A stretch of 64,000 bases of DNA, from the IMG/VR virus record IMGVR_UViG_3300039208_000529, positions 112,443 through 176,442 of that record. One strand, given 5' to 3'. Positions 9,113-59,349 of the stretch are shown piece after piece. This stretch comes from a virus. Taxonomy: Duplodnaviria > Heunggongvirae > Uroviricota > Caudoviricetes. The translations under genes and the position numbers were made by a program. Position 1 is the first letter of the stretch, and the number at the start of each line of letters is the position of its first letter. The notes under the pieces were generated by a model. That model was not told the origin of the DNA and made no database searches. It worked only from the letters and a program-made list of their open reading frames with translations.

Positions 9113-9116
9113 AAAT

Positions 9117-15773: not shown

Positions 15774-15942
15774 CGTATTTTTCTATTACTTCTTTAGCTG
15801 ATAAATGACCTTCTACGAAGCTTGCATATTCTTCTCTTGTTAATTTAAGAAATGTGTGTAGTGATTCTGGACTATCTCCAGCGTGCCACTCTTCTTCAAG
15901 ATCTAGAAGTCTAATTTCGTGTATGTCCGGTGAAGAATCCAT
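15754..15942 (-). CDS. hypothetical protein
   Basis: Start taken at the internal Met (MDSSPD...). Confidence 0.4.
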   Translation of the reverse strand: MDSSPDIHEIRLLDLEEEWHAGDSPESLHTFLKLTREEYASFVEGHLSAKEVIEKYDARSKE

Positions 15943-22724: not shown

Positions 22725-23336
22725 TTATCTAGTCCCTCCACCCAGCTGAAAAAACTTGTCTAAAAAAGCCTTCATAATTTTGTCATTATCAATTTTCTCA
22801 ACAGAAAATGGGCTGCTGTAAGAATACATAGCATGATTTGCATTACTTAATTTAAGAATTCCATCTCTGAAATCCATTGAGTATTCAGTAACCCAGTCTG
22901 GAATACGATGAAGTAATGTTTTAGCTTCAAAGATTAGGCAAGCCTTATCAGCTTCTTTCACAATATCGCTGTTAAATATGCCAAACGGCAACTTATATCT
23001 TGCCTCAATTGCTCCCTGAATCCCATCTTCGAGAACAGATATTTCTTTAAGGAATCTTTTGATAGGAGTAGGCACGTCGGCGAAATACGCTTCGCTGGCA
23101 TCATGAAGTAGCCCCGCCAATTGTTCCTCTTCCGTTCCCCCGGCATCCCTGATACGTTGAGCTACCTGTAATGAATGAGCCCCTACAGAATAAGAGAATT
23201 TGCAATGATCGTTCCATCTGCCCTTACGAGACAAAGGCACTACAATATCTAAAATATCCACATGCTCCGCACGCGGAGCAAATGGATAAAATTTCTTACC
23301 TGTATAAGTTGTAATATAAGTTTCTTCTTTTTTCAT
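22725..23336 (-). CDS. HD-domain phosphohydrolase (YfbR-like 5'-deoxynucleotidase family)
   Basis: H...HD motifs (GAHSLQVAQRI, LLHDASEAY). Confidence 0.6.
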   Translation of the reverse strand: MKKEETYITTYTGKKFYPFAPRAEHVDILDIVVPLSRKGRWNDHCKFSYSVGAHSLQVAQRIRDAGGTEEEQLAGLLHDASEAYFADVPTPIKRFLKEISVLEDGIQGAIEARYKLPFGIFNSDIVKEADKACLIFEAKTLLHRIPDWVTEYSMDFRDGILKLSNANHAMYSYSSPFSVEKIDNDKIMKAFLDKFFQLGGGTR

Positions 23337-24397
23337 TTCAACTTTCTTGCTACAAGTTTCCAAACATTGTCTTCAATATCTTTGTTGTCTAAAAGGCTAT
23401 ACAACAATCCTGTTTGTTCTGGATCTGAATTGGCCTGAATCCATAATGCCTGGTCTTTGCGAGTCACGTTGGGTCCTCGCGGAATTTTCTTTGACAGGTC
23501 TTCTGCGTCATATTTTATCTCATAATAAATTTTCTGTACTTGAGCCCTAACATCATCGAAATTAGCTTGAAGGTCTTTAGGAAGCTCAGCTAATAGTCCA
23601 CGATACTCTTTGCCGCGAATTAGATCGATAACTCCCTTAGGAGACAGATGTCCTAAGAGTTTATGAATTCTAAGATACCTAGGATCCTTAATCTTGACTC
23701 TTTGATTGTCCTCATCGAAGTGAACGACAAAACCTTCAAGCAAATCACTTTCAAATGGAGGCTCGCCCGAACAAAGCTCTTCGAATGAAAAAGAATATCT
23801 CTTTGGGCGTTTGAATCCTGCCGCCTCAGCAATCTTAGTAACTCTGTTTGCGTGCCACTCTTTGCCGCCTAGTTCGCGGATAGCGAGCAACGAGAGAAAT
23901 TCCTCACCCTCATAATCGACCACTACCCTGTTTTCAGGATAAACGATCTCAAAGATGGGAGTAACGTCTGTGGGAAGAGCGGCCAAAGCACTTCCATACA
24001 AGCGATACAGCATTTCAGATCCATACTGTGCTTGCTCGGACGCTAGGCTGCCTGGAGTAGCTAATCGCCAACGTCCGTTATAGTGATATCCAATGCCGCA
24101 TGACCCATCTACTTTTTCATAGATGTGAAAACTGCTACTCCAGGGCAAGTTTTCTGGTTGCGTTTTGCTTGTTTCGTAGAGATTGAAGAATTTACTGAAA
24201 GGTCGAGCCATAATGTTTGCGTTCTTATCGAAGATAATTCCCCGACATTCGATATTAACATCGTTCCACTCTGTCTTATTTTCAGCCATCATGGTTGGAT
24301 GATATTTGAAAAGAGTAAGATCACCTTCCGAGCTAGGCATAACCCGACCGGCCTCAACCTCTTTCCAGATCTTATTTAGTAGAATGGGATCATTCAT
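23333..24397 (-). CDS. ATP-dependent RNA ligase (Rnl1-like nucleotidyltransferase)
   Basis: Motif I FHIYEKVDGSCG (KxDG). Size and layout resemble T4 RnlA. Confidence 0.6.
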   Translation of the reverse strand: MNDPILLNKIWKEVEAGRVMPSSEGDLTLFKYHPTMMAENKTEWNDVNIECRGIIFDKNANIMARPFSKFFNLYETSKTQPENLPWSSSFHIYEKVDGSCGIGYHYNGRWRLATPGSLASEQAQYGSEMLYRLYGSALAALPTDVTPIFEIVYPENRVVVDYEGEEFLSLLAIRELGGKEWHANRVTKIAEAAGFKRPKRYSFSFEELCSGEPPFESDLLEGFVVHFDEDNQRVKIKDPRYLRIHKLLGHLSPKGVIDLIRGKEYRGLLAELPKDLQANFDDVRAQVQKIYYEIKYDAEDLSKKIPRGPNVTRKDQALWIQANSDPEQTGLLYSLLDNKDIEDNVWKLVARKLK

Positions 24398-24635
24398 TGT
24401 TAGAGCCAGATCTATATCCTGTAAATGATTGTCCGTTATGACAAAGTTCGTCAGTATTGCCCAACGTGTCTACATAGAAAACACGAACATCTTTGTTTAT
24501 TAATTGTTTAGTTACCAAATCTTTGATAACATCTTCGGCGGCATTCGTAACTGAAGAACACATCTTATTTTCTGATGTATCTTGAATTAGAATTCTGTTT
24601 TCGTCTCTACTAAGAACTCTATATGAAAACTTCAT
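24390..24635 (-). CDS. hypothetical protein
   Basis: 81-aa ORF. Confidence 0.45.
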   Translation of the reverse strand: MKFSYRVLSRDENRILIQDTSENKMCSSVTNAAEDVIKDLVTKQLINKDVRVFYVDTLGNTDELCHNGQSFTGYRSGSNNE

Positions 24636-24859
24636 AGCCGTAACATCTTTTTAACATCTTCGATTCTACGAAAGACATCCTGTGTTTGTTGAGTTTTTTC
24701 CAGGGTGTAAATCATATTACCGATGTATTTACGAATAACATCAGGACCATGTTCGTCAATGATTTCCCAAGACTCCTCTTTATAGCGAGCCTCTTTTTTT
24801 TCTTCAAGGTCGTCAGCCCAAGCCTTTTTACCGTCGCCCATTATTACTACGCTCTTCAA
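24632..24859 (-). CDS. hypothetical protein
   Basis: 75-aa ORF. Confidence 0.45.
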   Translation of the reverse strand: MKSVVIMGDGKKAWADDLEEKKEARYKEESWEIIDEHGPDVIRKYIGNMIYTLEKTQQTQDVFRRIEDVKKMLRL

Positions 24860-25151
24860 CTAAATTGTTTAAGATTGTTCGAAGTCGTTTATTTTTCTTT
24901 CTAAGGTCATTGATGGTCTTGTTGTCACGACGGACTATAACTATCTTTTCGTGTCCTCTGTCGTCAAGAATAGCAACCAATTGATTGACCACTCGTTTTG
25001 CAGCACTACCCGTCCATTGTTTTGTGATCGGGCCATGGTCGTTAATACAACACTTTAAAGCACCACTTACAATTTTTAGTAACTGATCGTTAGTAATCAT
25101 TTTGGGAGCATAAGCATAGTTAGCAGCATTAAAATTGTGGTAACTGGCCAA
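24828..25151 (-). CDS. hypothetical protein
   Basis: 107-aa ORF. Start uncertain. Confidence 0.45.
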   Translation of the reverse strand: MASYHNFNAANYAYAPKMITNDQLLKIVSGALKCCINDHGPITKQWTGSAAKRVVNQLVAILDDRGHEKIVIVRRDNKTINDLRKKNKRLRTILNNLVEERSNNGRR

Positions 25152-25245
25152 ATTAAAAATAATACAATAGATTTTTTACGGTTGTTGTGAAATTCTTCGA
25201 TGGCAAAAATATTACCAAATCCACCAAGAATGTATAATAAGATCA

Positions 25246-25815
25246 CTAACCATAACATGTCATTTCCTCAATATCTTCTATGGAAAGTAGTTTTTTGTTA
25301 GCGTCATATCCTACATCAATACGAAATGCATGATGATTCTTTGAGTATCTACTGTCTTCTATAGGAACTTTTGTCACTGAATACTTCGTATGAAGGTGTC
25401 CATGGAGATGAACTGAAGGTCGCTTGTGGTGCATTCTATTCCAAGAAAACAGAGGATAGTGACACATGACATACCTTTGATGATTATGCTTTAGCTCACA
25501 TAGTGGAGGTAGTACATCTTTAACAACGCCAGGTCCATATTGCTCAATGGCTTGAAGGAATTCTTTGTCGTGATTTCCAGGGACCACATACATACGTCCA
25601 TTCAGCCGTTGTAGAATCTCGTTTACTTCTTCTGGGCGTATTTTCATAGAGAAATCTCCCAGAAAGTATACTTCATCTCTTGGTCTCACTTGATCATTCC
25701 ACATCTTAATCAACCCTTCATTCATTTCCTCTACAGAAGAAAATGGACGATTGGAAAAGTCAATAATGTTCCCATGACCGAAGTGTAGATCTGAAGTAAA
25801 GAAGATGTTATTCAT
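25246..25815 (-). CDS. metallophosphoesterase (YfcE/MJ0936-like)
   Basis: SDLHFGH, GDF and GNHD motifs. Confidence 0.8.
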   Translation of the reverse strand: MNNIFFTSDLHFGHGNIIDFSNRPFSSVEEMNEGLIKMWNDQVRPRDEVYFLGDFSMKIRPEEVNEILQRLNGRMYVVPGNHDKEFLQAIEQYGPGVVKDVLPPLCELKHNHQRYVMCHYPLFSWNRMHHKRPSVHLHGHLHTKYSVTKVPIEDSRYSKNHHAFRIDVGYDANKKLLSIEDIEEMTCYG

Positions 25816-26167
25816 ATTTACGCTTTAATTCTTCTAATTGTTTAAGCTCTTTTTCTTTTTTCTTTTTAGTCAGCGTTGCTCGTCTCTTAGCAGCAGCTTT
25901 CTTTTTTTTGTCTTCTTGCTGTTTGCGTTTGGCAGCACGTTCTCTAGCAAATTTACGAGCTTCTTTTATCATATCAGAGACTTCATCTTTATCTAAGATT
26001 GGAATAAATCTTAGTTCTCCGTATTCATATTTTAGTTCTTCGATTTCGTCGTCGGTTAAATCGATAACATGCTCTGTTGGTACCCCGACACCCGAAATAT
26101 TATGATAGTAATCGTAACTATCATACTCAGTTTCAAAACCAACCGTTCTTAATACTAGATATTTCAT
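25808..26167 (-). CDS. hypothetical protein with a Lys-rich C-terminal tail
   Basis: 119-aa ORF with a poly-K/R tail. Confidence 0.5.
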   Translation of the reverse strand: MKYLVLRTVGFETEYDSYDYYHNISGVGVPTEHVIDLTDDEIEELKYEYGELRFIPILDKDEVSDMIKEARKFARERAAKRKQQEDKKKKAAAKRRATLTKKKKEKELKQLEELKRKYE

Positions 26168-26237
26168 TGGCCTCTAATCCTTACCGAACATAAAAAGAAA
26201 TTACTAAGAAAGAAGTTCTTTTCTGTAAAGCTATCAA

Positions 26238-26708
26238 TCATAGGAAACGAAAATAATGTATTTCAAGTAGTGTATCTAAGTCGTTGTAAAGAGGCAAGCC
26301 ATAGTGGTCGCACACTATTTCGACGTTACCTTTTCTCCAGTATCCATCAGGACATGAGACAACCAGGTCCCTATCTGCAAAAAGACCAAGCTCTAGTAAC
26401 GTAATTGGTGCTTTGGTTGATGGATCAAAATGCATGATGATAGAATCAGCCTTCGCTAAACCTTCAAGTTCCCATTCAACTTGCTGTTTAAACGGAGCAC
26501 AAGTGATTGATTGTTCCCAGTCTGGGTTCCATTCCTTCCGTCGGGGATTAAATATTGTTATATCGTCTCGACGCTGCTGCATTTTTGATATAACGTCTTG
26601 CTGCCATTGTGTTGCGGCTCCCATTTCAATAGATCCTGCCAAGAAGACCCATTCGTTATTTGAGTTATCCACTAACGGTTCAGGAGCAGTAATTACTTTA
26701 AACGTCAT
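26238..26708 (-). CDS. nucleoside 2-deoxyribosyltransferase/DNPH1-like protein
   Basis: VFLAGSI start and a Glu in the ELGLFA motif. Weak family resemblance only. Confidence 0.4.
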   Translation of the reverse strand: MTFKVITAPEPLVDNSNNEWVFLAGSIEMGAATQWQQDVISKMQQRRDDITIFNPRRKEWNPDWEQSITCAPFKQQVEWELEGLAKADSIIMHFDPSTKAPITLLELGLFADRDLVVSCPDGYWRKGNVEIVCDHYGLPLYNDLDTLLEIHYFRFL

Positions 26709-26710
26709 AC

Positions 26711-27985
26711 TTAAAATCCAGCCTGTTTTAGAACTTTAGCTCTTTCTTGTTCAATTTTCTGAGCGATAACCTTGCCATCTTTGAGATGTGCAAACTTGTA
26801 TCCCCTAACTCCTCGGATAATTTGAGCAGCTTTAATTACATTGTCTCGCGAAGGATAGGGCTTATCGATTAAATTTGGTCCACGTCCTTGAGCATCAGCC
26901 TGAGAAGCCAGAGCAATACGACGTAGTAACGTATCGTCTTGAATTGCGTTCAATCTCGTAAGAAGTCTTACTTTTTTAGTGGGCTTCAGGCCACTAAATC
27001 TGTGAATATTCAAGTGTTCTTTTGCGGTCATTGCTGCGGCCACCCGAAAACTATTCGGTGCTTTCAATCTATCACAAACTTTGTGCACCAGAGGAACCCC
27101 CAATGCTTCGTGATTATAGTGGTGTGGTAAATTGTAATCGTCTGTTACTGCCTTTCCAAGATCATGACACATTGCAGCAAACATAGTTTCAGGATCGCCA
27201 CCCAATTCTCTTGCTCTATCAATAACAAGCAGTGTGTGAACGTAGGCATCTCCCTCAGGATGATATTGCGGTGGCTGCACACGACCCTTCAGATTATCAA
27301 TTTCTGGAAATAGAATTGATAGGGCTTGTAGTTTATCTAAGGCTCGAAAGAATCGTGACGGCTTATTTGATGCGAGAGCCTTTGTTAGTTCCATCCATAC
27401 ACGTTCGCCAGACAAAGATTGAAGCTCGTTTAGAACCTTACTTGATTCGTGCACAAGGTTTTCGCCAATTGTCATTTCAAGTTGTGCGGCGAATCTAGCG
27501 GCTCTCATAACTCGCAAAGGGTCTTCGCCAAAGTGAGGTCCGACAGCAGTTAAAACACCATCCTCGATATCTTCTTTTCCATTAAAAGGATCGATAATTT
27601 CGTTGGTAAAGGGGTCCATTGCCATTGCGTTAACTGTTAGGTCGCGTCGGCCTAGATCATCCTTAAGAGTTACGTTATCGGCGGTCCACACGAAGCCTTT
27701 GTGCCCGGGACCGGCTTTCTTTTCTGTGCGTGCTAAAGCTATTTCTGTTTCATTGATAATAAAAACTGGGAACTTGTTTCCTACAACGCTGACTCCTGAT
27801 CCGGGGAATGCGTCAATGAGCTTTCGCCATGCGGACCTAAAATCTTCCGCCAATCCAACAACCACAATATCTACGTCGCTTGATTGTCTTCCCATTAGTA
27901 AATCCCGGACATATCCTCCAACCACATATGGTTGGCCACCAATATCCTTGATTTTGCGACAAAGCTCTAAGTGTTTTTCTAGCAT
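26711..27985 (-). CDS. cca: tRNA nucleotidyltransferase (CCA-adding enzyme) with an HD domain
   Basis: GGYVRDLLMG head motif, RRDLTVNAMA, C-terminal HD (HDLGK). Confidence 0.85.
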   Translation of the reverse strand: MLEKHLELCRKIKDIGGQPYVVGGYVRDLLMGRQSSDVDIVVVGLAEDFRSAWRKLIDAFPGSGVSVVGNKFPVFIINETEIALARTEKKAGPGHKGFVWTADNVTLKDDLGRRDLTVNAMAMDPFTNEIIDPFNGKEDIEDGVLTAVGPHFGEDPLRVMRAARFAAQLEMTIGENLVHESSKVLNELQSLSGERVWMELTKALASNKPSRFFRALDKLQALSILFPEIDNLKGRVQPPQYHPEGDAYVHTLLVIDRARELGGDPETMFAAMCHDLGKAVTDDYNLPHHYNHEALGVPLVHKVCDRLKAPNSFRVAAAMTAKEHLNIHRFSGLKPTKKVRLLTRLNAIQDDTLLRRIALASQADAQGRGPNLIDKPYPSRDNVIKAAQIIRGVRGYKFAHLKDGKVIAQKIEQERAKVLKQAGF

Positions 27986-28085
27986 ACCAGAGTATACTAC
28001 GTTACGCTATGCAGTCAAAACAATAATTAAGAATGTGGCACAGGCTACAAAAATTAGGGTACTGATGGTTCCGACAACCCAAACC

Positions 28086-28406
28086 CTAATTGATTTCTTC
28101 TTCATAGCGATTGCACTGTGTTATTACTGCAATATTTATCGTTGGAGGAATATCTGCTCTGCCAGGAGGAATGTAATGACAAATAGAACATACCTTAGTT
28201 GACCTAATCTCGTGTCGTTCTAGTTCTTCTCCACCACCTTGGGCTTCATCGAATACGTTTGATGGCAGATAATCAGGAGTATTGTTACCGCTGTTTCCAG
28301 GAAACCCTGTGTGTGAAAGATTTGCATGCTCTTCTTGTTTTAGACAAAGGCCATGCTTGCACGTCCAACAGAGACTTTTTTCGGGATCTAAATTGTCTTT
28401 ATTCAT
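28086..28406 (-). CDS. hypothetical Cys-containing protein
   Basis: 106-aa ORF. Confidence 0.45.
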   Translation of the reverse strand: MNKDNLDPEKSLCWTCKHGLCLKQEEHANLSHTGFPGNSGNNTPDYLPSNVFDEAQGGGEELERHEIRSTKVCSICHYIPPGRADIPPTINIAVITQCNRYEEEIN

Positions 28407-28849
28407 ATAGGTTTCTCTAATGGATGTGGTTGATATTTCGCAATCTGTTTTTTCAAGACTTCCATAGGTACATTATGGACATTTCTCTCAAAAAGGATGT
28501 CCGCATCCCAAGGCATTGGAGTGTGCACAATCTCTTTTCTGTAATTGTACATTTCTGCCATTTCTAGATATGGGTTAAGCTCTTTAAGTGTCATTGACGT
28601 ATTCGATACCACAATTGTTTCGTAACCAGCAATCATGGCTTGTTCGACATTAAGTTGACACCATTTATGAGCTTTACCAAGCAAAGCCGGATCAAATTTA
28701 TAGCTTCCGTCAAGACATGTATAAAACATATCTGCTTCAAGATGGACGAAATGTCTACGGATAGTCTTTTGCTGCCCGGCGATAGACCGGGCAGCAGTAG
28801 TCTTACCAGAGCCGCTAGGACCCCTGATAATCACGAGCTTTTTGTTCAA
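28403..28849 (-). CDS. P-loop polynucleotide-kinase-like protein (T4 Pnk kinase-domain-like)
   Basis: GPSGSGKTT Walker A; layout parallels the T4 Pnk kinase domain. Confidence 0.55.
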   Translation of the reverse strand: MNKKLVIIRGPSGSGKTTAARSIAGQQKTIRRHFVHLEADMFYTCLDGSYKFDPALLGKAHKWCQLNVEQAMIAGYETIVVSNTSMTLKELNPYLEMAEMYNYRKEIVHTPMPWDADILFERNVHNVPMEVLKKQIAKYQPHPLEKPI

Positions 28850-29224
28850 TTAAAAAACTTTTTCTTCTTGAGGAGAGTCTTGGTCTTCGCGAGTCGCGTT
28901 ACCAACAAACTCCCAATTATCAGCGACAACATATAGTTTGCTTCGTTTGTTTCCTTGATCGTCTTCCCAGGTATCTAGACGTAGACTGCCCTCGATGAAA
29001 GCTGACTTGCCTTTACTGTGATATTGTGCGAAGGTTTCTGCTCGCTTACCAAACATGGTAACGTCAACAAAAGTGGCTTCGTCTTGCCAATCACCATTGG
29101 CATCTTTGTAGCGGCGATTTGTAGCGATAGCAAAATTAGCCACCGAGGTTCCGCTTCCAGTTTGACGTAGTTCGGGATCTCGGGTAAGATTTCCCATTAA
29201 AATTGTTTTGTTATAACTAGACAT
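28850..29224 (-). CDS. ssb: single-stranded DNA-binding protein
   Basis: Bacterial-type OB fold: ILMGNLTRDPELRQT...FVDVTMFGKRAE...LYVVAD. Confidence 0.85.
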   Translation of the reverse strand: MSSYNKTILMGNLTRDPELRQTGSGTSVANFAIATNRRYKDANGDWQDEATFVDVTMFGKRAETFAQYHSKGKSAFIEGSLRLDTWEDDQGNKRSKLYVVADNWEFVGNATREDQDSPQEEKVF

Positions 29225-29573
29225 TTTCTACTTGCTCCGTTTGATTTGCGGCTACCGCTGAGGCAACCATTTCTGCTAATGCTTCTTGAGGACTGATGCC
29301 TCGCGAAACTTGTTCCTTAGTTCTACGAAAACGACGACCGGTTCTTTCTCTAAAGTTTTCTACGGTGAGACTTGGGTCAAGCAAAACGCTTGATGGAATA
29401 GTTTCACGTTGTTCCGTCATTCTTTTCAAGCCACCACCATCAATAAACTCTTGGAGGGCTTGTTCGCGAGTAATTTCTCCTGCTAAAATTCGGGCATGCT
29501 GTTCTTTTGTTACACGAAATCTGTGCCCAGTTGCTTCGTGAAAGTTATTTAGAGTCAACTTCTCTTCACTCAT
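29217..29573 (-). CDS. hypothetical protein with a tandem duplicated LTxxNFxExTGxRFRxTKEQ motif
   Basis: Two internal repeats. The same motif recurs at the N-terminus of 37750..38211. Confidence 0.5.
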   Translation of the reverse strand: MSEEKLTLNNFHEATGHRFRVTKEQHARILAGEITREQALQEFIDGGGLKRMTEQRETIPSSVLLDPSLTVENFRERTGRRFRRTKEQVSRGISPQEALAEMVASAVAANQTEQVENV

Positions 29574-29640
29574 TTTTTCTCCTTGTCAAACTATAAAACT
29601 AACAGATGTTAGAGTTATAATGACTGTTAGAAGATAACTG

Positions 29641-29874
29641 TCAAGGCCAAAAGACAATAACAGGGATCATTTTGTCCCATTCCGAAGGATCAACTTCGTC
29701 CTCTTCACCATAGATAGAATCGATAAAATAGCGATCGAGATCTTGCTGATAAACCCGAGCCTCACCGAATCCTTCTAGTTTTCCATAACTATTACCTTCG
29801 GGATCACTTGAAATTATTACGGGAGTTTCGTCTGGAATTTTTTCCAGCATTTCTTTCAATTCTTTGACATTCAT
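29641..29874 (-). CDS. hypothetical protein
   Basis: 77-aa ORF. Confidence 0.45.
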   Translation of the reverse strand: MNVKELKEMLEKIPDETPVIISSDPEGNSYGKLEGFGEARVYQQDLDRYFIDSIYGEEDEVDPSEWDKMIPVIVFWP

Positions 29875-30227
29875 TCTAATAGTCCGTATTTTCTTAAGCC
29901 TTCTGAGTATTCCCTAGAGTTTAATGTTTCATTAAGTGTCCGTTCTGGAAAAAAGTGCCTACATTCAGAGAAAACCTTGCACACTAATATTAGACGTTTC
30001 ATTCGTTCTAATGCCTCCTCTAATGTTGCTGCAAAACCATGCATCTTTCGTGGTTCTACTTCGTGGATTAACCATACACAGCTTTCAACTAAGAAATAGT
30101 GTTTGTGCCCCTTCCATTTTTGGTCCGGGTCAATGTAACAATCTCTTTCATATCCAGTGTAGGATACTTTTCCTACATCTTCAATATTAATTGAGCCGGC
30201 AAAATGGTTATAGCCTTCTTCGTTCAT
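29871..30227 (-). CDS. hypothetical protein
   Basis: 118-aa ORF. Confidence 0.5.
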   Translation of the reverse strand: MNEEGYNHFAGSINIEDVGKVSYTGYERDCYIDPDQKWKGHKHYFLVESCVWLIHEVEPRKMHGFAATLEEALERMKRLILVCKVFSECRHFFPERTLNETLNSREYSEGLRKYGLLE

Positions 30228-30231
30228 ATGT

Positions 30232-30307
<76 letters not shown>

Positions 30308-30523
30308 TTATTCCTTAGTTACCATCATAGCGATGCCGCCAATGGTCAAAGCCACTAGCATGACAGAAATTACTAATCCGATTGGAATCCATAGTGGAGA
30401 TAGAACCCACCACCAAGACCAAGTAATATTTCCAGTTAGCTTGAGTCCGATGAAAAGGATCGTCAGCAACCCACAGAAGCCAATACCTCCTCCGCGAACC
30501 TCAGTTTTGTTATTGTTAGACAT
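30308..30523 (-). CDS. small membrane protein (2-3 TM segments)
   Basis: Hydrophobic helices. Start taken at MSNNNK... Confidence 0.45.
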   Translation of the reverse strand: MSNNNKTEVRGGGIGFCGLLTILFIGLKLTGNITWSWWWVLSPLWIPIGLVISVMLVALTIGGIAMMVTKE

Positions 30524-30956
30524 TTTGTTTCTCTTTAATTTGTTTGAATACATTTTCAGCCTTACCGTGGTACAGGGTTTTTAGTCTACGTCTTTTGTAT
30601 CCAGTGACTTCCTGGACCTTTAACATGATTTCTCCACACATATTCATATCGTCTCCACCGACGGTATATACAGTATAAATATACTCTTCCCAAGCATTTC
30701 TGGCCGCCGGAGGATAAAGGTAAATTCCTCCTGGCTCATCTTTAAAGTGAGCAATTATAGAAGCGGCCAAGCAGCCCATGCCATTAGCAACAGATCTATC
30801 ATCGTCTATTCTCAATCCGTTTACAAGCATCCTGTCCTTTAAATAGGAAGACAGATCGATGCCATGGCCACTGGGATAACCATCAAACTGACGGTACATG
30901 TTACAAAGAGTTTTGCCGTGCTCGTCCTTAACGATCGTTAGACTTCTTGTTCCCAT
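30516..30956 (-). CDS. hypothetical protein
   Basis: 146-aa ORF. Confidence 0.5.
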   Translation of the reverse strand: MGTRSLTIVKDEHGKTLCNMYRQFDGYPSGHGIDLSSYLKDRMLVNGLRIDDDRSVANGMGCLAASIIAHFKDEPGGIYLYPPAARNAWEEYIYTVYTVGGDDMNMCGEIMLKVQEVTGYKRRRLKTLYHGKAENVFKQIKEKQNV

Positions 30957-31110
30957 TGAATAAATTAATTAGTGTTAGGGCAGTAAATAGAATAAGTTCT
31001 AGTGCGTAGATCCCGGTATGAAAAAGCCCGATGAAGAAAATTATAATAATAAGGGCTTCAATCATAAAATCGGAGGATAGTAAAATTGGAAAAAATAGCT
31101 ACTCAGGAGA

Positions 31111-31287
31111 TTAGATGTCCACGTTTTCTGCAACGCTTCTAACCAGCGATAAGACAAACAGTGCAATAGCTGTCGCAAAAAACGAAACACCAAGTCCAGC
31201 AAAAACCCAGGTGCCGAAGAATACTGGCACCAAACTGAAGTAGAGCATTTTCGTGCTCGGACTCATATCGTCGAATAGATCTCTCAT
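31111..31287 (-). CDS. small membrane protein (58 aa, below the ORF-track cutoff)
   Basis: ATG..TAA ORF MRDLFDDMSPSTKMLYFSLVPVFFGTWVFAGLGVSFF... with two TM helices. Confidence 0.3.
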   Translation of the reverse strand: MRDLFDDMSPSTKMLYFSLVPVFFGTWVFAGLGVSFFATAIALFVLSLVRSVAENVDI

Positions 31288-31364
31288 GATTCTACTTTAT
31301 CACAGCTTAGACGGATGTCAAGGCGTCTAGGAGATAAATCCCCTAGACGCCGTTTATAGGAAAA

Positions 31365-32630
31365 CTACTGTTGATCAGGAGAAACTTGACGCTTACCTTG
31401 ATCCATAATGCCTGTGGCTTGTAGGAGTAACAGATTCATCATGCTATCCTGAAGACCCGCACCATTGCCGTTAGCGTTTTCGCCTCCGATAAACATTACA
31501 CTTGGAACCTTCACGTTGGCAAGAGCCGTGCCAATCTTGACACGAGCGTTAGCTTCGATCTCGGCTAATACACGATCACGCTCCGTAATAGCACCAGCTT
31601 TGAGAATTCGTTCTTCCTCAGCTGCTGCGGCTACGCGAACCGCTTCAGCGTTTAGACGTTCTGCCGCGAGATCAAGCTCGGCAACAACACGACGAGCGTC
31701 GGCTTCAGTCGTTTGACGGCGTTTGATCTCTTCGGCTTGTAGAGCTTGTTGAGCCGCAACGGCTACTTCCATTTCAGCTTCAATCGTACGACGAGCTTTC
31801 TCTTTGTTGGCTTCGCCTTCTACTTCTGCTTTTTCACGCTCGAATTGTTCCACAACCATGAGACGTTGTTGAACTTGTTCTTCACGCTTAGCTTTAAACT
31901 CTTCTGCCCGTAGGAATGCTTCCTTTTTAGTGTTGAAAAGTTCACGAGTTTTAGGATCGTAAGTTGTGTTCTCAATAGAGAATTGAACAACCTGAATTCC
32001 GTATTGGTTTAGAGGAGATTGTTGAGCCACTTCATACTGGCCGCTTTCGTTAGTTACAATTTCTGTAGCGAAAACTGTAATAGGGTTACCAGATTCATCA
32101 AACTGGTCGTGAAGCTCTCGTTCTACTTTTACTGTACGATAAAGTCCGTTTTCAAGCTGACCGCGTACCAAATTAGTAAAGTCTGATTTGCGAGCCGACT
32201 GGTTTTCGGATGCACTCATAACCGGACCCGTAACTTTGATTGCGTTTACGAGATGCGACATGATTGCTGCATCAACGTTATCAATATTTCCGCTGAATTC
32301 ACGATGTAAAACGCGACGGCTTTCTTCGTCAACCGGAAGTCGATAACGCAGAGTACCATTTAGGTTAGCTGTGCCACCATCGTTAAAGGTGACACTAATT
32401 TCGCCTTCGTCACCGAAACGAGTTTGGTGAGCACGAGGCCAGGTCCAGACGGTAGCAAACCACTTCGGGTACCAACCTGGAATATCACGGACTTCGATGT
32501 TACCGCGAACAGACTGAATCACTTGCCAGTTTTGGTCTTCGTTGTATCCAATGCCTCCGGCGAACAGGCCGATGGCACCGAGAAGAACCATAACTCCTGC
32601 GATAATACTAAATCGTGCTTTATTAGTCAT
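31365..32630 (-). CDS. SPFH/band-7 domain protein (HflK/C or flotillin-like) with a C-terminal Ala/Glu coiled coil
   Basis: N-terminal TM segment, SPFH core, long AE-rich coiled coil. Confidence 0.65.
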   Translation of the reverse strand: MTNKARFSIIAGVMVLLGAIGLFAGGIGYNEDQNWQVIQSVRGNIEVRDIPGWYPKWFATVWTWPRAHQTRFGDEGEISVTFNDGGTANLNGTLRYRLPVDEESRRVLHREFSGNIDNVDAAIMSHLVNAIKVTGPVMSASENQSARKSDFTNLVRGQLENGLYRTVKVERELHDQFDESGNPITVFATEIVTNESGQYEVAQQSPLNQYGIQVVQFSIENTTYDPKTRELFNTKKEAFLRAEEFKAKREEQVQQRLMVVEQFEREKAEVEGEANKEKARRTIEAEMEVAVAAQQALQAEEIKRRQTTEADARRVVAELDLAAERLNAEAVRVAAAAEEERILKAGAITERDRVLAEIEANARVKIGTALANVKVPSVMFIGGENANGNGAGLQDSMMNLLLLQATGIMDQGKRQVSPDQQ

Positions 32631-32886
32631 TTTCTAGAAAATCCTTTGTCGTCTTCAATTCGTTGTCAAGGGCTTTACGGGCCCGCCTTAATTCATTTTG
32701 TTTAGTCTTAACAGAACGCTTGATTTGATCGCTTTCATTAATCAAATCTTTTACGGAATCCTCGTAAGACTCTTCGAGATCCATAAGCGTGTTCGTTTTG
32801 TCGCTTCGCATGAAGCCTCTGATAATAAAGTACCCTCCAACAAGGACGGACACCACAATCAGCAATAGTGAAAAGAGAGGTATCAT
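32623..32886 (-). CDS. small TM protein with a coiled coil, cotranscribed upstream of the SPFH gene
   Basis: N-terminal TM helix and overlapping stop/start. Confidence 0.5.
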   Translation of the reverse strand: MIPLFSLLLIVVSVLVGGYFIIRGFMRSDKTNTLMDLEESYEDSVKDLINESDQIKRSVKTKQNELRRARKALDNELKTTKDFLEND

Positions 32887-32887
32887 A

Positions 32888-33889
32888 TTATTCTCCGTAT
32901 TTCAATAAGAAATCATTGTTAATTACTTTGAAAGATAGTCGGCCTTCGAGAGCTTTAGAATATTGTTCAACCATTGGACGAATTACAATTCCTTCACGAG
33001 GCTGTCCGTTTGGATAAGTACCGCGAGCCATTTCCAGAAACGTTTTCACGTCATGCGACTTCTCATGAATGTAACCGTATTCAATGATGCTAACTGGATC
33101 TAGACGTAACTTAAGCAACACAGTTTCTATAAAGGGCTCAAAGTCGAGAAATTTTTGCTCATCAATATTCCATACGTTGAAAATGCGTAGCTCGTGCTCT
33201 TTTAATCCTAAGCGGTTTCCTTGAATTTGAGGGCCAACAAGCTCTCCCTGGATTGCTGCATTAAATGGCAAGCTAGACAATTTTTCCTCTAGATTTAGTT
33301 TACGAGCCATTTTCCAATACGTGTTGTCGTCGTTCTCTTTCAAGTCTACTTTGCGAGAACATACTCCAAACTCTCCATCTTTGAGATAAGCTGTGAAACT
33401 AGTGCCATCGTCTTTCCGGGTAATGTATAGAGACAGACCTCGAATCTCTTCTAGTACCTCAGGGAAACTTTGTAGGCGAGGCTCGTCCGTTTTGCGAATC
33501 CAGTGTGGGCGAAAACGTTTCATAATTCCACGAAGCTGGATAGGAACGCTTGGTTCCCACTTTTCCACACCAATAATGTCGGTGACATCATCTCCAACAC
33601 TATATTCACCATTTGGTAAGATGCTTAGTGGAAAACAAATACCTTGCGAGATTTGTCCACGAAGACGGATAGTCTTTACGCGAAACTTTGCTTTACGTAG
33701 AAAATCAAATTCTGGACGATCTGGCAACACCGAATCAATTTCAACATAGACACAAAGATCGTCTGGTTTAAAATCGTCCTTGCGAGCAACTACTTGCCAA
33801 CCTAAAACTTGTACTGTCTCGATAGTGTCAGCCTCTTCAATCGGAGACACGTCGAGAATTCGTTGAATAGATGCTAATTTACGTTTCAT
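32888..33889 (-). CDS. RNA ligase (DraRnl/Rnl5-like, PF09414 type)
   Basis: N-terminal MKRKLASIQRIL...GWQVVARKD module. Motif I YITRKDDGTSF (KxDG). Confidence 0.7.
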   Translation of the reverse strand: MKRKLASIQRILDVSPIEEADTIETVQVLGWQVVARKDDFKPDDLCVYVEIDSVLPDRPEFDFLRKAKFRVKTIRLRGQISQGICFPLSILPNGEYSVGDDVTDIIGVEKWEPSVPIQLRGIMKRFRPHWIRKTDEPRLQSFPEVLEEIRGLSLYITRKDDGTSFTAYLKDGEFGVCSRKVDLKENDDNTYWKMARKLNLEEKLSSLPFNAAIQGELVGPQIQGNRLGLKEHELRIFNVWNIDEQKFLDFEPFIETVLLKLRLDPVSIIEYGYIHEKSHDVKTFLEMARGTYPNGQPREGIVIRPMVEQYSKALEGRLSFKVINNDFLLKYGE

Positions 33890-35251: not shown

Positions 35252-35336
35252 TGGTACCTGGGGCGGGACTCGAACCCGCACGCCTTGCGGCATCAGATTT
35301 TGAGTCTGACGTGTCTGCCGATTTCACCACCCAGGC
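35252..35336 (-). tRNA. tRNA-Leu (anticodon CAA), type II
   Basis: 85 nt, 3-bp D stem, loop CUCAAAA, 13-nt variable arm, T-loop TTCGAGT, CCA encoded. Confidence 0.8.
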
Positions 35337-35684
35337 TCATAATGGCCATTCCGTTACCACGTTGCCCTCTCTATCGGTGTAGACAACTTTGCGAATTCCG
35401 TGTTCTTCGATAATTGCTTGACAACTAGGGCATGGCTTGCTCATTTGTGCATTTTTGCGTGCAACATAAATAACTGACCCCTTGGGGTCAATACCTCTAG
35501 AAATGGCTTTACGGATCACCGCTGCTTCGGCGTGCAATGTTCTCAATGGGCCACCACCCCATTTCGGATGGGTTCTATACGAATTACATGCCTTAGCTAG
35601 TACGCTTCCGCCACGCACAAGAACCGCACCATGTTTAACTCGTGCCGTTGATTTTTTGGATTCTTTCAGTGCCAAATTAATCAT
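35337..35684 (-). CDS. CMP/dCMP-type zinc deaminase
   Basis: HAEAAVI (H-A-E) and PCPSC zinc-ligand motifs. Confidence 0.75.
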   Translation of the reverse strand: MINLALKESKKSTARVKHGAVLVRGGSVLAKACNSYRTHPKWGGGPLRTLHAEAAVIRKAISRGIDPKGSVIYVARKNAQMSKPCPSCQAIIEEHGIRKVVYTDREGNVVTEWPL

Positions 35685-37478: not shown

Positions 37479-37554
37479 TGGTCGGGAATGGTAGAATCGA
37501 ACTACGTCTTGGGGCTCCCAAGGCCCCCGTGCAAACCATTACACTTCATTCCCG
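37479..37554 (-). tRNA. tRNA-Pro (anticodon UGG)
   Basis: 7-bp acceptor CGGGAAT/ATTCCCG, anticodon arm GGGGC-CUUGGGA-GCCCC, T-loop TTCGATT, CCA encoded. D arm irregular. Confidence 0.6.
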
Positions 37555-48489: not shown

Positions 48490-48838
48490 CAGGACGTTTC
48501 TCCGTTTTGCTTCTCGACAAAATTTTCCACCTGTCAACCGGATCTGTACCGATCAGATCTCTTACCGTAGGTTTTATATCGCCCTTATATGCTTTTGGTT
48601 TAGTCCACCTATTACCACTTTTCATACCAACCAAGCCCATGATCCTAAAAGGACAATCTTCTTTAATGTCAAAAAATCTATCCATAAATACTACAATATA
48701 TTTGTCGCCATCTGTCCTTTGGAGAATTGCCCCCTCCGACAAACCCTCGGTGTGATCGAGCGGCTCTAATTGCTTTAACAAGTCTTCTGCCCAAACATGT
48801 AACTTGTCATTCCCAGCTGCATTCAATTGATTTTCCAT
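48470..48838 (-). CDS. hypothetical protein
   Basis: 122-aa ORF. Confidence 0.45.
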   Translation of the reverse strand: MENQLNAAGNDKLHVWAEDLLKQLEPLDHTEGLSEGAILQRTDGDKYIVVFMDRFFDIKEDCPFRIMGLVGMKSGNRWTKPKAYKGDIKPTVRDLIGTDPVDRWKILSRSKTEKRPDVSQNS

Positions 48839-49520
48839 TCCAAATTACGTAGTGAAACAATTCAATGATTGGGCAACAGACCCACTCTGTTTGTCCTACT
48901 ATACCACGGTCAGGCTCATGATGATGTCCGAAAAACCAGAATTTCGGCTGAAATTGGTCCATGACAGCCTGAAGGCACTGACGATCACCCTTACTACTTA
49001 TGTCTGGACTACTATATCGCGTGTCCGAGTAAGGAATCGAAAGAGGATGGTCGTGACTGAAAATGGCATCAATTGGTCCATCTTGAGACAACGCTTTCTT
49101 GGTTTCTTCGTATGTGATACTTTCTTCTGGCCACCAGTTTAATCCTTCGGTACGATATTCTTTATCATATGAAGTAGCACCACCAAAGAACATAGCTCGC
49201 GTTGCTTCGCCAAATTCCATTACGTCACCACGAGGATGATATCTAGTCCACTTATTTCCAGATCCGCCTTTTGCTCGCAAAAGCGGATGGTTGTCGTGAT
49301 TTCCGTCGCACCAATCAATCACAATGTTAGGAGGACCATCATGTTTATAAAAGCTTTTCTTGTACTTGAAAAATTTATTATAAAGATTTGGCCAACCGTC
49401 AGCAAAATCTCCCACTTGAACAATGTGCGTAATATCGGAATGCTGCTTCATTGCTTTAGCAATAGTAATATTCATAGCGGTCCAATCACCATGAACGTCT
49501 CCTAGAACTAAAGCTTTCAT
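48807..49520 (-). CDS. Ser/Thr protein phosphatase (lambda-PPase/ApaH-like metallophosphoesterase)
   Basis: VLGDVHGD, GDFADG, DGNHD and GHHHE motifs. Confidence 0.8.
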   Translation of the reverse strand: MKALVLGDVHGDWTAMNITIAKAMKQHSDITHIVQVGDFADGWPNLYNKFFKYKKSFYKHDGPPNIVIDWCDGNHDNHPLLRAKGGSGNKWTRYHPRGDVMEFGEATRAMFFGGATSYDKEYRTEGLNWWPEESITYEETKKALSQDGPIDAIFSHDHPLSIPYSDTRYSSPDISSKGDRQCLQAVMDQFQPKFWFFGHHHEPDRGIVGQTEWVCCPIIELFHYVIWNGKSIECSWE

Positions 49521-49897
49521 CCTAAGATCCCAGGTAAATCATTTACCAAAATCGTGTATGGAACATATCTAACGGACCAAAATCCGGCATGATCTAGGTG
49601 ATCTACCATACCTAAAGCTGCTGGTTGGTTAACTGAGTGAATTACGATTGTAGTTTCTCTATGTTTTTCTTGCTCAGCAAGCCAGAAAGCAACTTTGCTA
49701 CCGGAGTTTTTATCACCGCAGTCAACATGTTCCTGACCCAGATCATGGTCCAAAAACATCATATCATACTTTCCTTTAGAAAGAAAGCGGATAGCGTCAT
49801 TTGCTGTGGTGGCATGATCAATTGAATGACCTCTTAGAGCATCGCGAAACACTTCCATACGATACTCGCTGTCCTCAAGAATAAGAATATTCATCAC
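49517..49897 (-). CDS. CheY-like receiver-domain protein (stand-alone)
   Basis: ILILEDSE...YDMMFLDHDLG pattern with conserved acidic residues. 126 aa. Confidence 0.5.
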   Translation of the reverse strand: MMNILILEDSEYRMEVFRDALRGHSIDHATTANDAIRFLSKGKYDMMFLDHDLGQEHVDCGDKNSGSKVAFWLAEQEKHRETTIVIHSVNQPAALGMVDHLDHAGFWSVRYVPYTILVNDLPGILG

Positions 49898-51991: not shown

Positions 51992-52065
51992 GACCCTGTA
52001 GTTTAATGGAGAACATCGGCGTTAATCTGCCGACGGCATAGGTTTGAATCCTGTCGGGGTCGCCA
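51992..52065 (+). ncRNA. atypical tRNA-like gene with an 8-nt anticodon loop (GUUAAUCU), 3-bp D stem and short variable loop
   Basis: 7-bp acceptor GACCCTG/CGGGGTC, anticodon stem TCGGC/GCCGA, T arm ATAGG-TTTGAAT-CCTGT, CCA encoded. 71 nt plus CCA. Confidence 0.45.
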
Positions 52066-54197: not shown

Positions 54198-54273
54198 GGG
54201 GGTATAGTGCTAATTGGTAACACACGGCCCTTGCAAGGCCGAATACGGGGATCATAACCCCGTGCCTCCACCA
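54198..54273 (+). tRNA. tRNA-Ala (anticodon UGC) with a non-canonical T-loop (ATCATAA)
   Basis: Acceptor GGGGGTA/TGCCTCC, anticodon arm CGGCC-CUUGCAA-GGCCG, CCA encoded. Confidence 0.6.
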
Positions 54274-54675: not shown

Positions 54676-54983
54676 AAACCAAAATCTATTACAGTGTACA
54701 AAATTATGGCGATGGCACTGCTCATCCTGTGTTTTTTAGTTCACAAGAATTAGCTGATCTGCATCAAAAACATCAATGTGAAGGTTGGGCTGAAGATTGT
54801 GTTGGTTTTATCGAAATTGAATCCGATAATCCTATTCAATGCGTTCAGGTGCAAACTCGCAAAGATATGCTCAAAGAGCTTCACGAAGATTTGTTTGATG
54901 AAAACGGTGAATTAGAGTCCTGGGTTGACGACGACGACGAGTCGTGGAAATTCTATCAAGACATTCTAATGTTGGATCAATAA
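54672..54983 (+). CDS. hypothetical acidic protein
   Basis: ATGA overlap with the upstream gene. Confidence 0.5.
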   Translation: MKTKIYYSVQNYGDGTAHPVFFSSQELADLHQKHQCEGWAEDCVGFIEIESDNPIQCVQVQTRKDMLKELHEDLFDENGELESWVDDDDESWKFYQDILMLDQ

Positions 54984-55576
54984 TATTGAAGCAGTATCCC
55001 TCAATCCCATCGAAGATCATTTACAGCACTCCTATTTATGCTTTCGATAAACTGGACGGCTCGAATATTCGCGTCGAATGGACGAGAAAACGCGGGTTTC
55101 ACAAATTTGGCCGCAGAAACGGATTGTTGGACGACTCAAATCCAATCCTAAAAAAATCGATCCCCATATTTGAAGATAAATATTCTGATGATCTGGAAAA
55201 GATATTCTGCAAGCAAGGCTGGGACAAGACAATTGCTTACGTAGAATTTTATGGATCCAATTCCTTTGCCGGATTTCACGATGAATCCGACGACCACACG
55301 GTAACACTCTTTGATGTGTGGGTCCATAAGAAAGGCTTCGTACTTCCAAACCACTTTCTTTCTCTATTTAAAGATGTTGATATTCCTAATGTTGTGCATC
55401 GTGGTAAGGTCAATAAAGAAGTAGAAGGAAACATTCGTCAATCCACACTTGACGGAGTTACCTTTGAAGGTGTAGTGTGTAAGGGGCCGGGCATCTCTTT
55501 CAAGATTAAGACTAGAGCCTGGCTTGAAAAATTGAAGGCCGTGTATAGTGATCAGGAGTTTGAGCGTCTCAAATGA
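54944..55576 (+). CDS. minimal ATP-dependent RNA ligase-like nucleotidyltransferase (Rnl2-type NTase core)
   Basis: Motif I AFDKLDGSN; motif IV DGVTFEGVVCK; motif V SFKIKTRAW. Start position uncertain. Confidence 0.6.
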   Translation: MEILSRHSNVGSIILKQYPSIPSKIIYSTPIYAFDKLDGSNIRVEWTRKRGFHKFGRRNGLLDDSNPILKKSIPIFEDKYSDDLEKIFCKQGWDKTIAYVEFYGSNSFAGFHDESDDHTVTLFDVWVHKKGFVLPNHFLSLFKDVDIPNVVHRGKVNKEVEGNIRQSTLDGVTFEGVVCKGPGISFKIKTRAWLEKLKAVYSDQEFERLK

Positions 55577-55718
55577 GACAGTACGGGAAAACTAAGATTA
55601 AGTGTAAGGTGCCTGGTCACGGACACGGTTGCAGTATTTGTGTTCCAGATACCGATAAAAAAATAGGGCGGGCCCGTGCTCGTCGCAAAGGAAAAAAAGA
55701 ATGTCTCGGTGGTGTTTA
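55573..55718 (+). CDS. small Cys/His-rich basic protein (48 aa, below the cutoff); 3' end overlaps tRNA-Gly
   Basis: ATGA coupling to the ligase stop. MRQYGKTKIKCKVPGHGHGCSICVPD...RARARRKGKK. Confidence 0.3.
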
Positions 55719-55778
55719 ATGGTAGCACAAGGGATTTCCAATCCTTTAGTCTGAGTTCAAATCTCAGTCGGGACTCCA
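55703..55778 (+). tRNA. tRNA-Gly (anticodon UCC)
   Basis: Acceptor GTCTCGG/TCGGGAC, anticodon arm AGGGA-UUUCCAA-TCCTT, T-loop TTCAAAT, CCA encoded. Confidence 0.8.
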
Positions 55779-59274: not shown

Positions 59275-59349
59275 TCCGGCGTAGTTCAACGGTAGAACGC
59301 GAAGCTGTTAACTTCGTTGCTGGAGGTTCGATTCCTTCCGCCGGAGCCA
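59275..59349 (+). tRNA. tRNA-Asn (anticodon GUU)
   Basis: Acceptor TCCGGCG/CGCCGGA, anticodon arm CGAAG-CUGUUAA-CTTCG, T-loop TTCGATT, CCA encoded. Confidence 0.85.

Follow-up and report, generated by a model that had tools for sequence, protein, structure and literature searches.

We found that a 64-kb stretch of DNA from a large uncultured phage (IMG/VR record IMGVR_UViG_3300039208_000529, positions 112,443 to 176,442; ~41% GC), which as a whole is called the window here, probably encodes a modular RNA break-repair system, in which a stand-alone relative of T4 polynucleotide kinase, a small metallophosphoesterase (MPE) and an Rnl1-like ligase would heal and seal broken RNA. Cleavage of tRNA underlies a major class of anti-phage defences, comprising anticodon nucleases, HEPN toxins, Cas13 collateral cleavage, PARIS and some retron effectors, and to our knowledge the Pnkp-Rnl1 pair of phage T4 is the only phage repair answer that is experimentally understood. 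The window and the loci linked to it point to a compact three-gene alternative consisting of a stand-alone Pnk, a metallophosphoesterase and an Rnl1. A first-pass annotation, made from the sequence alone, had proposed six repair genes in this region, namely three ligases, a kinase, an MPE and a CCA-adding enzyme, and we recovered all six open reading frames (ORFs) at the coordinates and on the strands that it gave, each fitting the family proposed for it:

23333..24397, minus strand: Rnl1-like ATP-dependent RNA ligase, 354 aa, motif I K95-VDG, PF09511 at 3.8e-21
25246..25815, minus strand: small MPE, 189 aa, PF00149, phrog_547 at 1.4e-49
26711..27985, minus strand: predicted CCA-adding/repair enzyme of class II, 424 aa, ending in an HD domain, PF01743, PF12627 and PF01966
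28403..28849, minus strand: predicted stand-alone T4-Pnk-like polynucleotide 5'-kinase, 148 aa, P-loop G10-PSGSGKT, catalytic D40, lid R122
32888..33889, minus strand: predicted Rnl5-family (DraRnl/NgrRnl) nick-sealing RNA ligase, 333 aa, motif I K159-DDG, PF21189 and PF09414
54986..55576, plus strand: candidate mini RNA ligase made of a nucleotidyltransferase (NTase) domain only, 196 aa, in an ORF that opens with GTG at 54944, inside the tRNA array

The profile checks proposed for these proteins were run and all gave matches, PF09511 (RNA_lig_T4_1) for the Rnl1-like protein, PF09414 for the Rnl5-family protein and the mini-ligase, and AAA_33 for the kinase, and at the domain level the matches to these predicted families far exceed chance. 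The kinase (AAA_33 at 2.9e-12 in Pfam) gave P-loop matches only when its single sequence was compared with solved structures. A family profile built from an alignment of 51 metagenomic homologues and compared with the whole PDB placed T4 polynucleotide kinase first, at 1.1e-10 and with an end-to-end alignment, in agreement with the earlier 'T4-Pnk-like' call, and the next matches were CthPnkp (2.8e-8), PSTK, fungal RNA kinases and mammalian PNKP. D40 was aligned with the catalytic T4 D35 and Cth D38, and R122 with the lid arginine T4 R126, while the invariant features of the family were the P-loop, D40 in an EAD motif, H61, an SNT motif and H125. These alignments identify the protein as a predicted relative of polynucleotide kinases, ahead of other P-loop kinases. 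It consists of a single domain with no phosphatase module, and so does not carry the C-terminal HAD (DxDxT) 3'-phosphatase domain that is fused to the kinase in T4 Pnkp.

In the Rnl1-like ligase, residues 22-352 were covered by a match to phrog_562 (2e-60; annotated 'RNA ligase and tail fiber protein attachment catalyst'), and residue 352 falls at profile position 363 of 377. The match of this ligase to the T4 Rnl1 structure 2c5u was at 9e-11, and the direct alignment ends at residue 251; in T4 Rnl1 it is the C-terminal helical domain that gives the enzyme its tRNA specificity. The motifs K95-VDG, E150, E221-G222 and K235/K237 correspond to T4 K99, E159, E227-G228 and K240/K242, and the family is invariant at R52, K69, F71, K95, G98, E150, E221, G222, K235 and K237. 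R52, K69, F71 and G98 match T4 R54, K75, F77 and G102, and we take R54, K75 and F77, which precede motif I, along with K119, to be the Rnl1-specific essential residues known from T4 mutational studies.

For the MPE, the PF00149 match and a complete set of metal-binding motifs bore out the earlier call. The motifs D9-x-H11, G53-D54, G80-N-H-D83, H119 and G139-H-x-H142, which outline a binuclear metal site, are invariant in 36 sequences, the invariant residues being D9, H11, D54, N81, H82, H119, H140 and H142. Comparison of the MPE profile with the PDB gave aq_1665 (1xm7), an uncharacterised Aquifex protein, as the nearest match at 8e-16, followed by weak matches to GpdQ and YfcE. We propose that this protein is the 2',3'-cyclic-phosphate/3'-phosphate end-healing enzyme of the system. 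Enzymes of its superfamily can open 2',3'-cyclic phosphates and take off phosphate (PMC2190708), and the RNA-end role of the window MPE is based on this precedent and on gene linkage, since its sequence shows no detectable tie to known RNA 2',3'-phosphoesterases.

Linkage was counted in 80 IMG/VR loci per anchor gene, within +/-10 kb and with de-replication at 60% identity, and it tempers the weight of these counts, which are indicative only, that the loci are not phylogenetically independent and that many contigs are truncated. No loci were recovered when the Rnl1 protein of the window served as the sole query, and the Rnl1 loci were obtained with an alignment built from previously collected loci. 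Around the kinase, an MPE was present in 43 of the 80 loci (median distance 241 nt), an Rnl1-like ligase in 18, an Rnl5 in 17 and a ligase of whatever type in 32, each time on the strand of the kinase, and after de-replication the MPE was found in 13/32 clusters. Around Rnl1, 44 of the 80 loci held the kinase (median 304 nt), 37 the MPE, 26 both, 18 an Rnl5, 12 a CCA enzyme and 0 the HD protein that is encoded beside Rnl1 in the window, the de-replicated numbers being 17 for the kinase, 11 for the MPE and 6 for the CCA enzyme in 32 clusters. Control genes taken from the window (SSB, dNMP kinase, NAMPT and Nudix) occurred in 0-2 of the 80 kinase loci. The commonest gene order was MPE, kinase, Rnl1. 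Isolated phages carry related arrangements: in Vibrio phage 184E37-3b, genes annotated as 'phosphoesterase', 'RNA ligase' and 'ATPase' are contiguous (MPE-Rnl1-kinase), and the T5-like phage Brizo has genes for a phosphatase, an RNA ligase, an ATPase, a hypothetical protein and a phosphoesterase in this order (Rnl1-kinase-x-MPE for the last four); the window MPE is 36-37% identical to the phosphoesterases of 184E37-3b and Brizo. In the window the genes of this cluster lie on one strand within 6.1 kb, with reading frames that overlap or nearly abut, and the closest relatives read SSB-kinase-ORF106-CCA-Rnl1-dNMP kinase on a 76-kb contig and kinase-CCA-Rnl1-dNMP kinase on a 164-kb contig. Thus, kinase, MPE and Rnl1 recur as a same-strand cassette across phage lineages, and because the linkage is conserved in unrelated phages, a pathway of end healing and sealing gains independent support.

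In the proposed pathway, the Pnk-like kinase would phosphorylate the 5'-OH end of the broken RNA and the small MPE would take off the 2',3'-cyclic or 3' phosphate, a step that may be assisted by the CCA enzyme through its HD domain, or by a pair formed by a cyclic-phosphate-processing receiver (cREC) domain protein and a second metallophosphoesterase (MPE2). The Rnl1-like ligase, which we propose as the sealing enzyme of this heal-and-seal pathway, would then rejoin the RNA at the single-stranded break, for which the anticodon loop of a tRNA would be the typical site, so that the system could serve the phage against tRNA-cleaving host systems, the candidates named at first pass being PrrC, RloC, colicin-like enzymes and CCA-trimming toxins. 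The first-pass reading of these genes as a repair toolkit is upheld by the kinase/MPE/Rnl1 linkage, by the T4 Pnk match and by the case for CCA repair; it is not upheld by the MPE sequence, in which no kinship to RNA phosphoesterases was detected.

We compared the predicted system with those already described. As with T4 Pnkp and Rnl1, which counter PrrC, 5' phosphorylation, removal of 2',3'-cyclic or 3' phosphate and ATP-dependent sealing of the Rnl1 type are implied, and the window kinase is homologous to the kinase domain of T4 Pnk and the ligase to T4 Rnl1; unlike in T4, healing is split over two proteins and an MPE stands in place of the HAD phosphatase. From the Pnkp-Hen1 and Pnkp1-Rnl-Hen1 systems of Clostridium thermocellum and Capnocytophaga, the window differs in having the three activities on separate polypeptides, a ligase of the Rnl1 rather than the Rnl4 type, an MPE for which no kinship to the CthPnkp phosphatase clade could be detected, and no Hen1; a SpoU gene lies 12 kb off. 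Jumbo phages are reported to pair RNA ligases with kinases, with HAD, calcineurin-like or HD phosphatases and, in several groups, with CCA enzymes for tRNA repair (PMC7824862), and one described neighbourhood combines a T4-like tRNA ligase with cREC and a nucleotide kinase, and at times with a calcineurin-like phosphoesterase (PMC9503650). The window shares with these repertoires (Iyer et al. 2021, PMC7824862; Iyer et al. 2022, PMC9503650; XacN1, BcepSauron, rV5/Mydo) several ligases, polynucleotide kinases, calcineurin-like or HD phosphatases, cREC, a CCA enzyme and many tRNAs. It differs from them in that this phage and its relatives place the CCA enzyme between kinase and Rnl1, and in what the 64 kb scanned do not contain: RtcB, 2H, Tpt1/KptA, RlaP (PF10127) and HAD phosphatase were absent among window ORFs of at least 130 aa, and no sirtuin was found in the window. 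The earlier remark that three ligase families in one genome are unusual has to be withdrawn, as more than one RNA ligase per genome is on record for jumbo phages, XacN1 having three Rnl2-family paralogues and BcepSauron all three types (PMC7824862). Since such surveys already report kits of this kind, the window kit is a fresh example rather than a novel type of system. What is of interest is the quantitative linkage of the split cassette, the NTase-only ligase family in tRNA arrays, and a CCA enzyme that tRNA maturation does not explain. Our literature search found no biochemical study of a split MPE-Pnk-Rnl1 cassette; the cassette is directly testable, because besides being common in uncultured phages it is also present in cultivable Vibrio T5-like phages.

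A second arm of the system would be provided by the CCA-adding/repair enzyme, which is of bacterial type and may restore damaged tRNA 3' ends. The earlier assignment of a CCA enzyme with an HD domain was confirmed by matches to PF01743, PF12627 and PF01966, by phrog_2244 at 1e-105 and by intact motifs GGYVRD23, DVD37 (A), RRD113 (B), EDPLR154 (D) and HD274. Its best NCBIfam model was NF008137, 'multifunctional CCA addition/repair protein' (3.9e-108, profile 3-403/409), and the score of 361.9 bits lies below the equivalog cut-off of 451, with PcnB at 115.6 and the A-adding model at 74 bits. The phage enzyme thereby resembles E. coli Cca in its class II head motifs, RNA-binding region and HD domain and in aligning with NF008137 end to end, and differs from it in falling, at 362 bits, short of the 451-bit cut-off. 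E. coli Cca acts through its HD domain as a 2',3'-cyclic phosphodiesterase and as a phosphatase, and by analogy the HD domain of the phage enzyme could contribute to end healing. We found 11 tRNA genes in the window, ten with ARAGORN and one more with Rfam, and CCA is encoded in each of them:

30232..30307, minus strand: tRNA-Arg(UCU)
35252..35336, minus strand: tRNA-Leu(CAA)
37483..37553, minus strand: tRNA found by Rfam only, followed by ACCA
39359..39450, minus strand: tRNA-Tyr(GUA)
40450..40525, minus strand: tRNA with a CUA anticodon (amber-suppressor type; ARAGORN label 'Pyl')
44455..44532, minus strand: tRNA-Ile(UAU)
51992..52065, plus strand: tRNA-like gene with a 6-nt anticodon loop
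53633..53710, plus strand: tRNA-Met(CAU)
54198..54273, plus strand: tRNA-Ala(UGC)
55703..55778, plus strand: tRNA-Gly(UCC)
59275..59349, plus strand: tRNA-Asn(GUU)

Because all 11 phage tRNA genes encode CCA, we assign the CCA enzyme, as the simpler reading, to repair rather than to maturation, and a role as a maturation factor was rejected. The tRNA-like gene at 51992-52065 scored 52 bits with Rfam, and ARAGORN reported its loop as ttaatc and assigned no anticodon; a decoy, a tRNA of frameshift type and a pseudogene are the candidate readings. The genes for tRNA-Met and tRNA-Ala flank an opposite-strand gene for an HNH endonuclease with zinc-finger motifs (53712-54182, minus strand), which looks like the insertion of a homing endonuclease into the tRNA array. 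We also considered a TAG recoding tied to the CUA tRNA and rejected it for this window, given that TAG stops 23/115 predicted genes and that coding density under the standard code is normal.

The second ligase had been called DraRnl-type, and this call was substantiated by PF21189, an OB-like N-domain (8e-33, residues 5-88), PF09414 (1.7e-23, residues 154-323 of 333) and TIGR02306 RNA_lig_DRB0094, at 179.9 bits above the cut-off of 151. NgrRnl (5cot) aligned over the full length at 3.4e-54, with K159 aligned to NgrRnl K170. The predicted protein is a bona fide Rnl5 enzyme, homologous to DraRnl and NgrRnl throughout, with the same N-terminal OB-like domain and NTase and no C-terminal appendage, and we saw no difference from them at the level of sequence. 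Its closest homologue, at 48% identity, is encoded by the 735-kb uncultured phage LR756501. Rnl5 enzymes seal duplex nicks and require RNA on the 3'-OH strand only (PMC4408790). For the window Rnl5, and for the mini-ligase as well, the most probable substrate would be base-paired RNA with a nick to be sealed.

The mini-ligase had been described as a minimal enzyme of Rnl2 type encoded at 54944..55576. An ORF of this extent is present; its real start is most likely TTG 54986, because this start equals that of the identical metagenomic protein P0001 and of all homologues. The NTase fold was confirmed, whereas the C-terminal domain that is the signature of Rnl2 is missing, as is the N-domain of Rnl5. 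PF09414 was passed narrowly, with 30.7 bits against a cut-off of 27, and motifs I (K22-LDG), III (E87), IIIa (D110), IV (E161-G162) and V (K173/K175) are invariant family-wide. In the predicted structure (pLDDT 95), two short helices after motif V end the model. The fold is that of RNA-ligase NTases, and since DNA ligases (at most 11.7) and the capping enzyme (8.1) rank lower in the fold comparison, the possibility raised at first pass that a KxDG protein might turn out to be a DNA ligase or capping enzyme is unsupported for this protein. With T4 Rnl2 and REL1 it shares the NTase fold and motifs I, III, IIIa, IV and V, but it stops ~20 residues past motif V. As it has 196 aa and its homologues are uniformly ~200 aa, we regard it as an NTase-only relative and not as a canonical Rnl2, and we know of no characterised polynucleotide ligase that is as small. 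The family has ~2,000 metagenomic members, nearly all of ~200 aa and often on contigs of 300-790 kb; the phages found to carry it were only the Xanthomonas jumbo phage XacN1, four huge metagenomic phages (485-642 kb) and Lak megaphages, and XacN1 ORF354 is the closest isolate homologue (43% identity).

The neighbourhood of this family is rich in tRNA genes. In the window, tRNA-Gly(UCC) lies 127 nt downstream of the mini-ligase, and among the mini-ligase loci 64/80 contained tRNAs (658 tRNAs in all), 34 of them with a tRNA within 2 kb; after de-replication, clusters with tRNAs numbered 25/38 for the mini-ligase, 14/32 for Rnl1 and 9/32 for the kinase. Clustering of neighbouring ORFs in the 80 loci revealed no conserved partner gene, only antisense shadow ORFs and lineage-restricted neighbours, the kinase was linked to the mini-ligase in 0/80 loci, and the nearest other ligase gene in the window, Rnl5, is 21 kb away on the opposite strand. 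If the mini-ligase were dedicated to tRNA, its retention inside tRNA gene arrays would be explained. We hold as possible, and on balance doubtful, a joint reading in which the mini-ligase represents a huge-phage family's self-sufficient smallest RNA ligase, or a trans-acting tRNA sealing subunit, and stands beside a widespread split MPE/Pnk-like/Rnl1 system with 3' healing unlike that of T4. An NTase-only family would also be of practical interest as a minimal RNA-joining enzyme.

Several observations weigh against RNA break repair as the function of these genes. The kinase family has Phe (consensus EADxFF) where T4 R38 and Cth R41 sit, so that substrate binding may differ with Phe replacing Arg three residues after the catalytic Asp. 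The Rnl1-like protein and its closest relative have Pro at the position of T4 K119, which is Lys, Arg or Thr in other members; identity to T4 Rnl1 is low, the score against TIGR02308, the T4 RnlA equivalog, is 72.5 bits with a cut-off of 242, and the protein is classified as a predicted divergent relative of T4 RnlA, not an equivalog. Comparison of the MPE profile with the PDB showed no kinship to the CthPnkp/lambda-phosphatase clade. The natural substrates of Rnl5 enzymes may include DNA repair intermediates, Rnl2 needs its C-terminal domain for complete nick sealing, and isolated NTase domains of Rnl2 and Rnl5 are poor at full ligation, only the final sealing step being efficient (PMC4408790). 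Finally, the repair genes are interspersed with small ORFs of no known function and with genes of nucleotide metabolism, namely those for a dNMP kinase (PF21448), a YfbR/Dmp-like HD protein and a Nuc_deoxyri_tr2 protein.

These last genes bear on the alternative that fares best, which we nevertheless consider unlikely: kinase, MPE, HD protein, Nuc_deoxyri_tr2 protein and dNMP kinase would form a block for nucleotide salvage or modification, and Rnl5 and the mini-ligase would seal RNA-terminated nicks in DNA, for instance in replication and repair intermediates with RNA primers or patches, and would not mend tRNA. It draws on the presence of the three metabolic genes in the block, on SSB and a DnaQ-like exonuclease among the neighbours, and on the requirement of Rnl5 for RNA on the 3'-OH strand only, with a role in DNA repair having been suggested (PMC4408790). 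However, the kinase profile selects T4 Pnk along with further kinases that act on polynucleotides or tRNA, the mini-ligase is associated with tRNA arrays rather than with replication genes, and it is the kinase and MPE that accompany Rnl1, whereas the HD protein occurs in 0/80 Rnl1 loci and the dNMP kinase in 1-2/80. The HD protein (22725-23363) resembles YfbR, Atu1052 and T5 Dmp (phrog_318 at 3e-40; PDB matches YfbR and Atu1052), and its ATG overlaps the Rnl1 stop codon (ATGA). We considered it as a 3'-healing enzyme and rejected this, as it is 5'-deoxynucleotidase-like and a homologue was near Rnl1 or the kinase in 0/160 loci; more likely, the HD protein and the adjacent dNMP kinase serve nucleotide metabolism. 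The nucleoside 2-deoxyribosyltransferase-like Nuc_deoxyri_tr2 protein (26238-26708, minus strand; PF15891 at 1e-32, phrog_30579) is encoded 2 nt after the CCA gene, and candidate roles for it are nucleotide salvage or modification and NAD/ADP-ribose chemistry.

There is still less to be said for processing of RNA without any host attack, whereby ligases, kinase and CCA enzyme would mature the RNAs of the phage tRNA array or other RNAs by trimming, joining or circularisation. The location of the mini-ligase inside the tRNA array, shared widely by its homologues, would suit this improbable alternative, as would the HNH gene between tRNA-Met and tRNA-Ala, the aberrant 6-nt anticodon loop of the tRNA-like gene and the SpoU methyltransferase next to the suppressor tRNA. 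Normal bacterial tRNA maturation leaves 5'-phosphate and 3'-OH ends, however, so that a kinase and a phosphoesterase would be superfluous; moreover, 11/11 tRNA genes already encode CCA, ARAGORN and Rfam gave no intron or split structure, and the mini-ligase has no conserved partner gene. We likewise give little credence to the absence of any pathway, with separately acquired accessory genes merely sharing a co-directional block and some having non-catalytic or unrelated roles, cf. T4 Rnl1 (gp63) in tail-fibre attachment, which the phrog_562 annotation also covers, for while 21.9-35.2 kb is a single minus-strand block in which 26 or more genes, most of them unrelated, are tightly packed and promoter and terminator scans define no operon boundary above chance, and while the mini-ligase lies 21 kb from Rnl5 on the other strand and is kinase-linked in 0/80 loci, the short-distance, same-strand linkage of MPE, kinase and Rnl1 recurs in many lineages beyond chance and catalytic residues are intact in all the enzymes.

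Besides the six genes, we noted further candidate parts of the break-repair system and a small ORF within its cluster:

28086..28406, minus strand: Cys-rich ORF (ORF106), 106 aa, CxxC...CxxC, between the kinase and CCA genes
40535..41017, minus strand: SpoU-class RNA 2'-O-methyltransferase, TrmH/TrmL-like, 160 aa, PF00588 at 3e-19 (candidate extra part)
48807..49520, minus strand: MPE2, 237 aa, PF00149 at 3.6e-12, phrog_1649 at 6e-25 (candidate extra part)
49517..49897, minus strand: cREC domain protein, 126 aa, PF20274 at 1.2e-13 (candidate extra part)

ORF106, whose gene overlaps that of the kinase by 4 nt, had no Pfam or other family match; the closest relative has an ORF in the same slot (kinase-ORF-CCA) with 26% identity, and an accessory protein is possible. 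The SpoU-class gene begins 10 nt from the CUA tRNA gene, and its NCBIfam matches to TrmH and TrmL are weak. The cREC and MPE2 genes overlap by 4 nt. Predicted roles of cREC are the clearing of RNA 2',3'-cyclic ends and the processing of cyclic ADP-ribose derivatives (PMC7824862, PMC9503650), and because its neighbours in the window are NAD salvage genes, its assignment to RNA repair is uncertain. These genes belong to an NAD-centred block (44523-49897, minus strand) with cREC, MPE2, Nudix, two ORFs, NAMPT (phrog_448 at 1e-144) and a 382-aa protein whose C-terminal domain resembles cytidylyltransferases (NMNAT-like), and the block may be a system for NAD+ reconstitution or for degrading ADP-ribose signals. 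A 285-aa protein with DUF7277 and DUF7275 (57995-58852, plus strand; phrog_2141) was considered as RlaP and rejected, as it had no PF10127, PDB or NCBIfam match. Its N-terminus reads LIGSRAL...DWDII, which resembles the GS...DxD of Pol-beta-type nucleotidyltransferases.

The source phage belongs to a lineage that is absent from isolate databases by megablast, the tRNA-Arg gene being the sole match among 50,697 isolate phage records, and a 20-kb contig essentially identical to part of the stretch is present in the public read set SRR4039776. Protein comparisons mark the region as phage-like, with long co-directional gene blocks that switch strand at ~11.5 kb and ~52 kb, and with genes typical of huge phages (ribonucleotide reductase, ThyX, PhoH, peptide deformylase, methionine aminopeptidase, sigma factor, NAMPT and Nudix hydrolase). 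Neither Pfam nor PHROG gave a match for the ORFs at 6351-8762 (plus strand, 803 aa), 9075-11453 (plus strand, 792 aa) and 15911-16924 (minus strand, 337 aa). The peptide deformylase and methionine aminopeptidase genes are adjacent (13892-15213, minus strand), so that the phage encodes enzymes of N-terminal protein processing, and close to them are genes for PhoH, for a glycosylase of the UDG family and for a sigma-70 region-2 protein. A 115-aa protein of cytidine/dCMP-deaminase fold is encoded at 35337-35684 (minus strand), abutting the tRNA-Leu gene, where longest-ORF calling favours a probably spurious plus-strand ORF. Lastly, an HD_4 protein resembling RelA/SpoT-type hydrolases (36775-37302, minus strand) could degrade alarmones.

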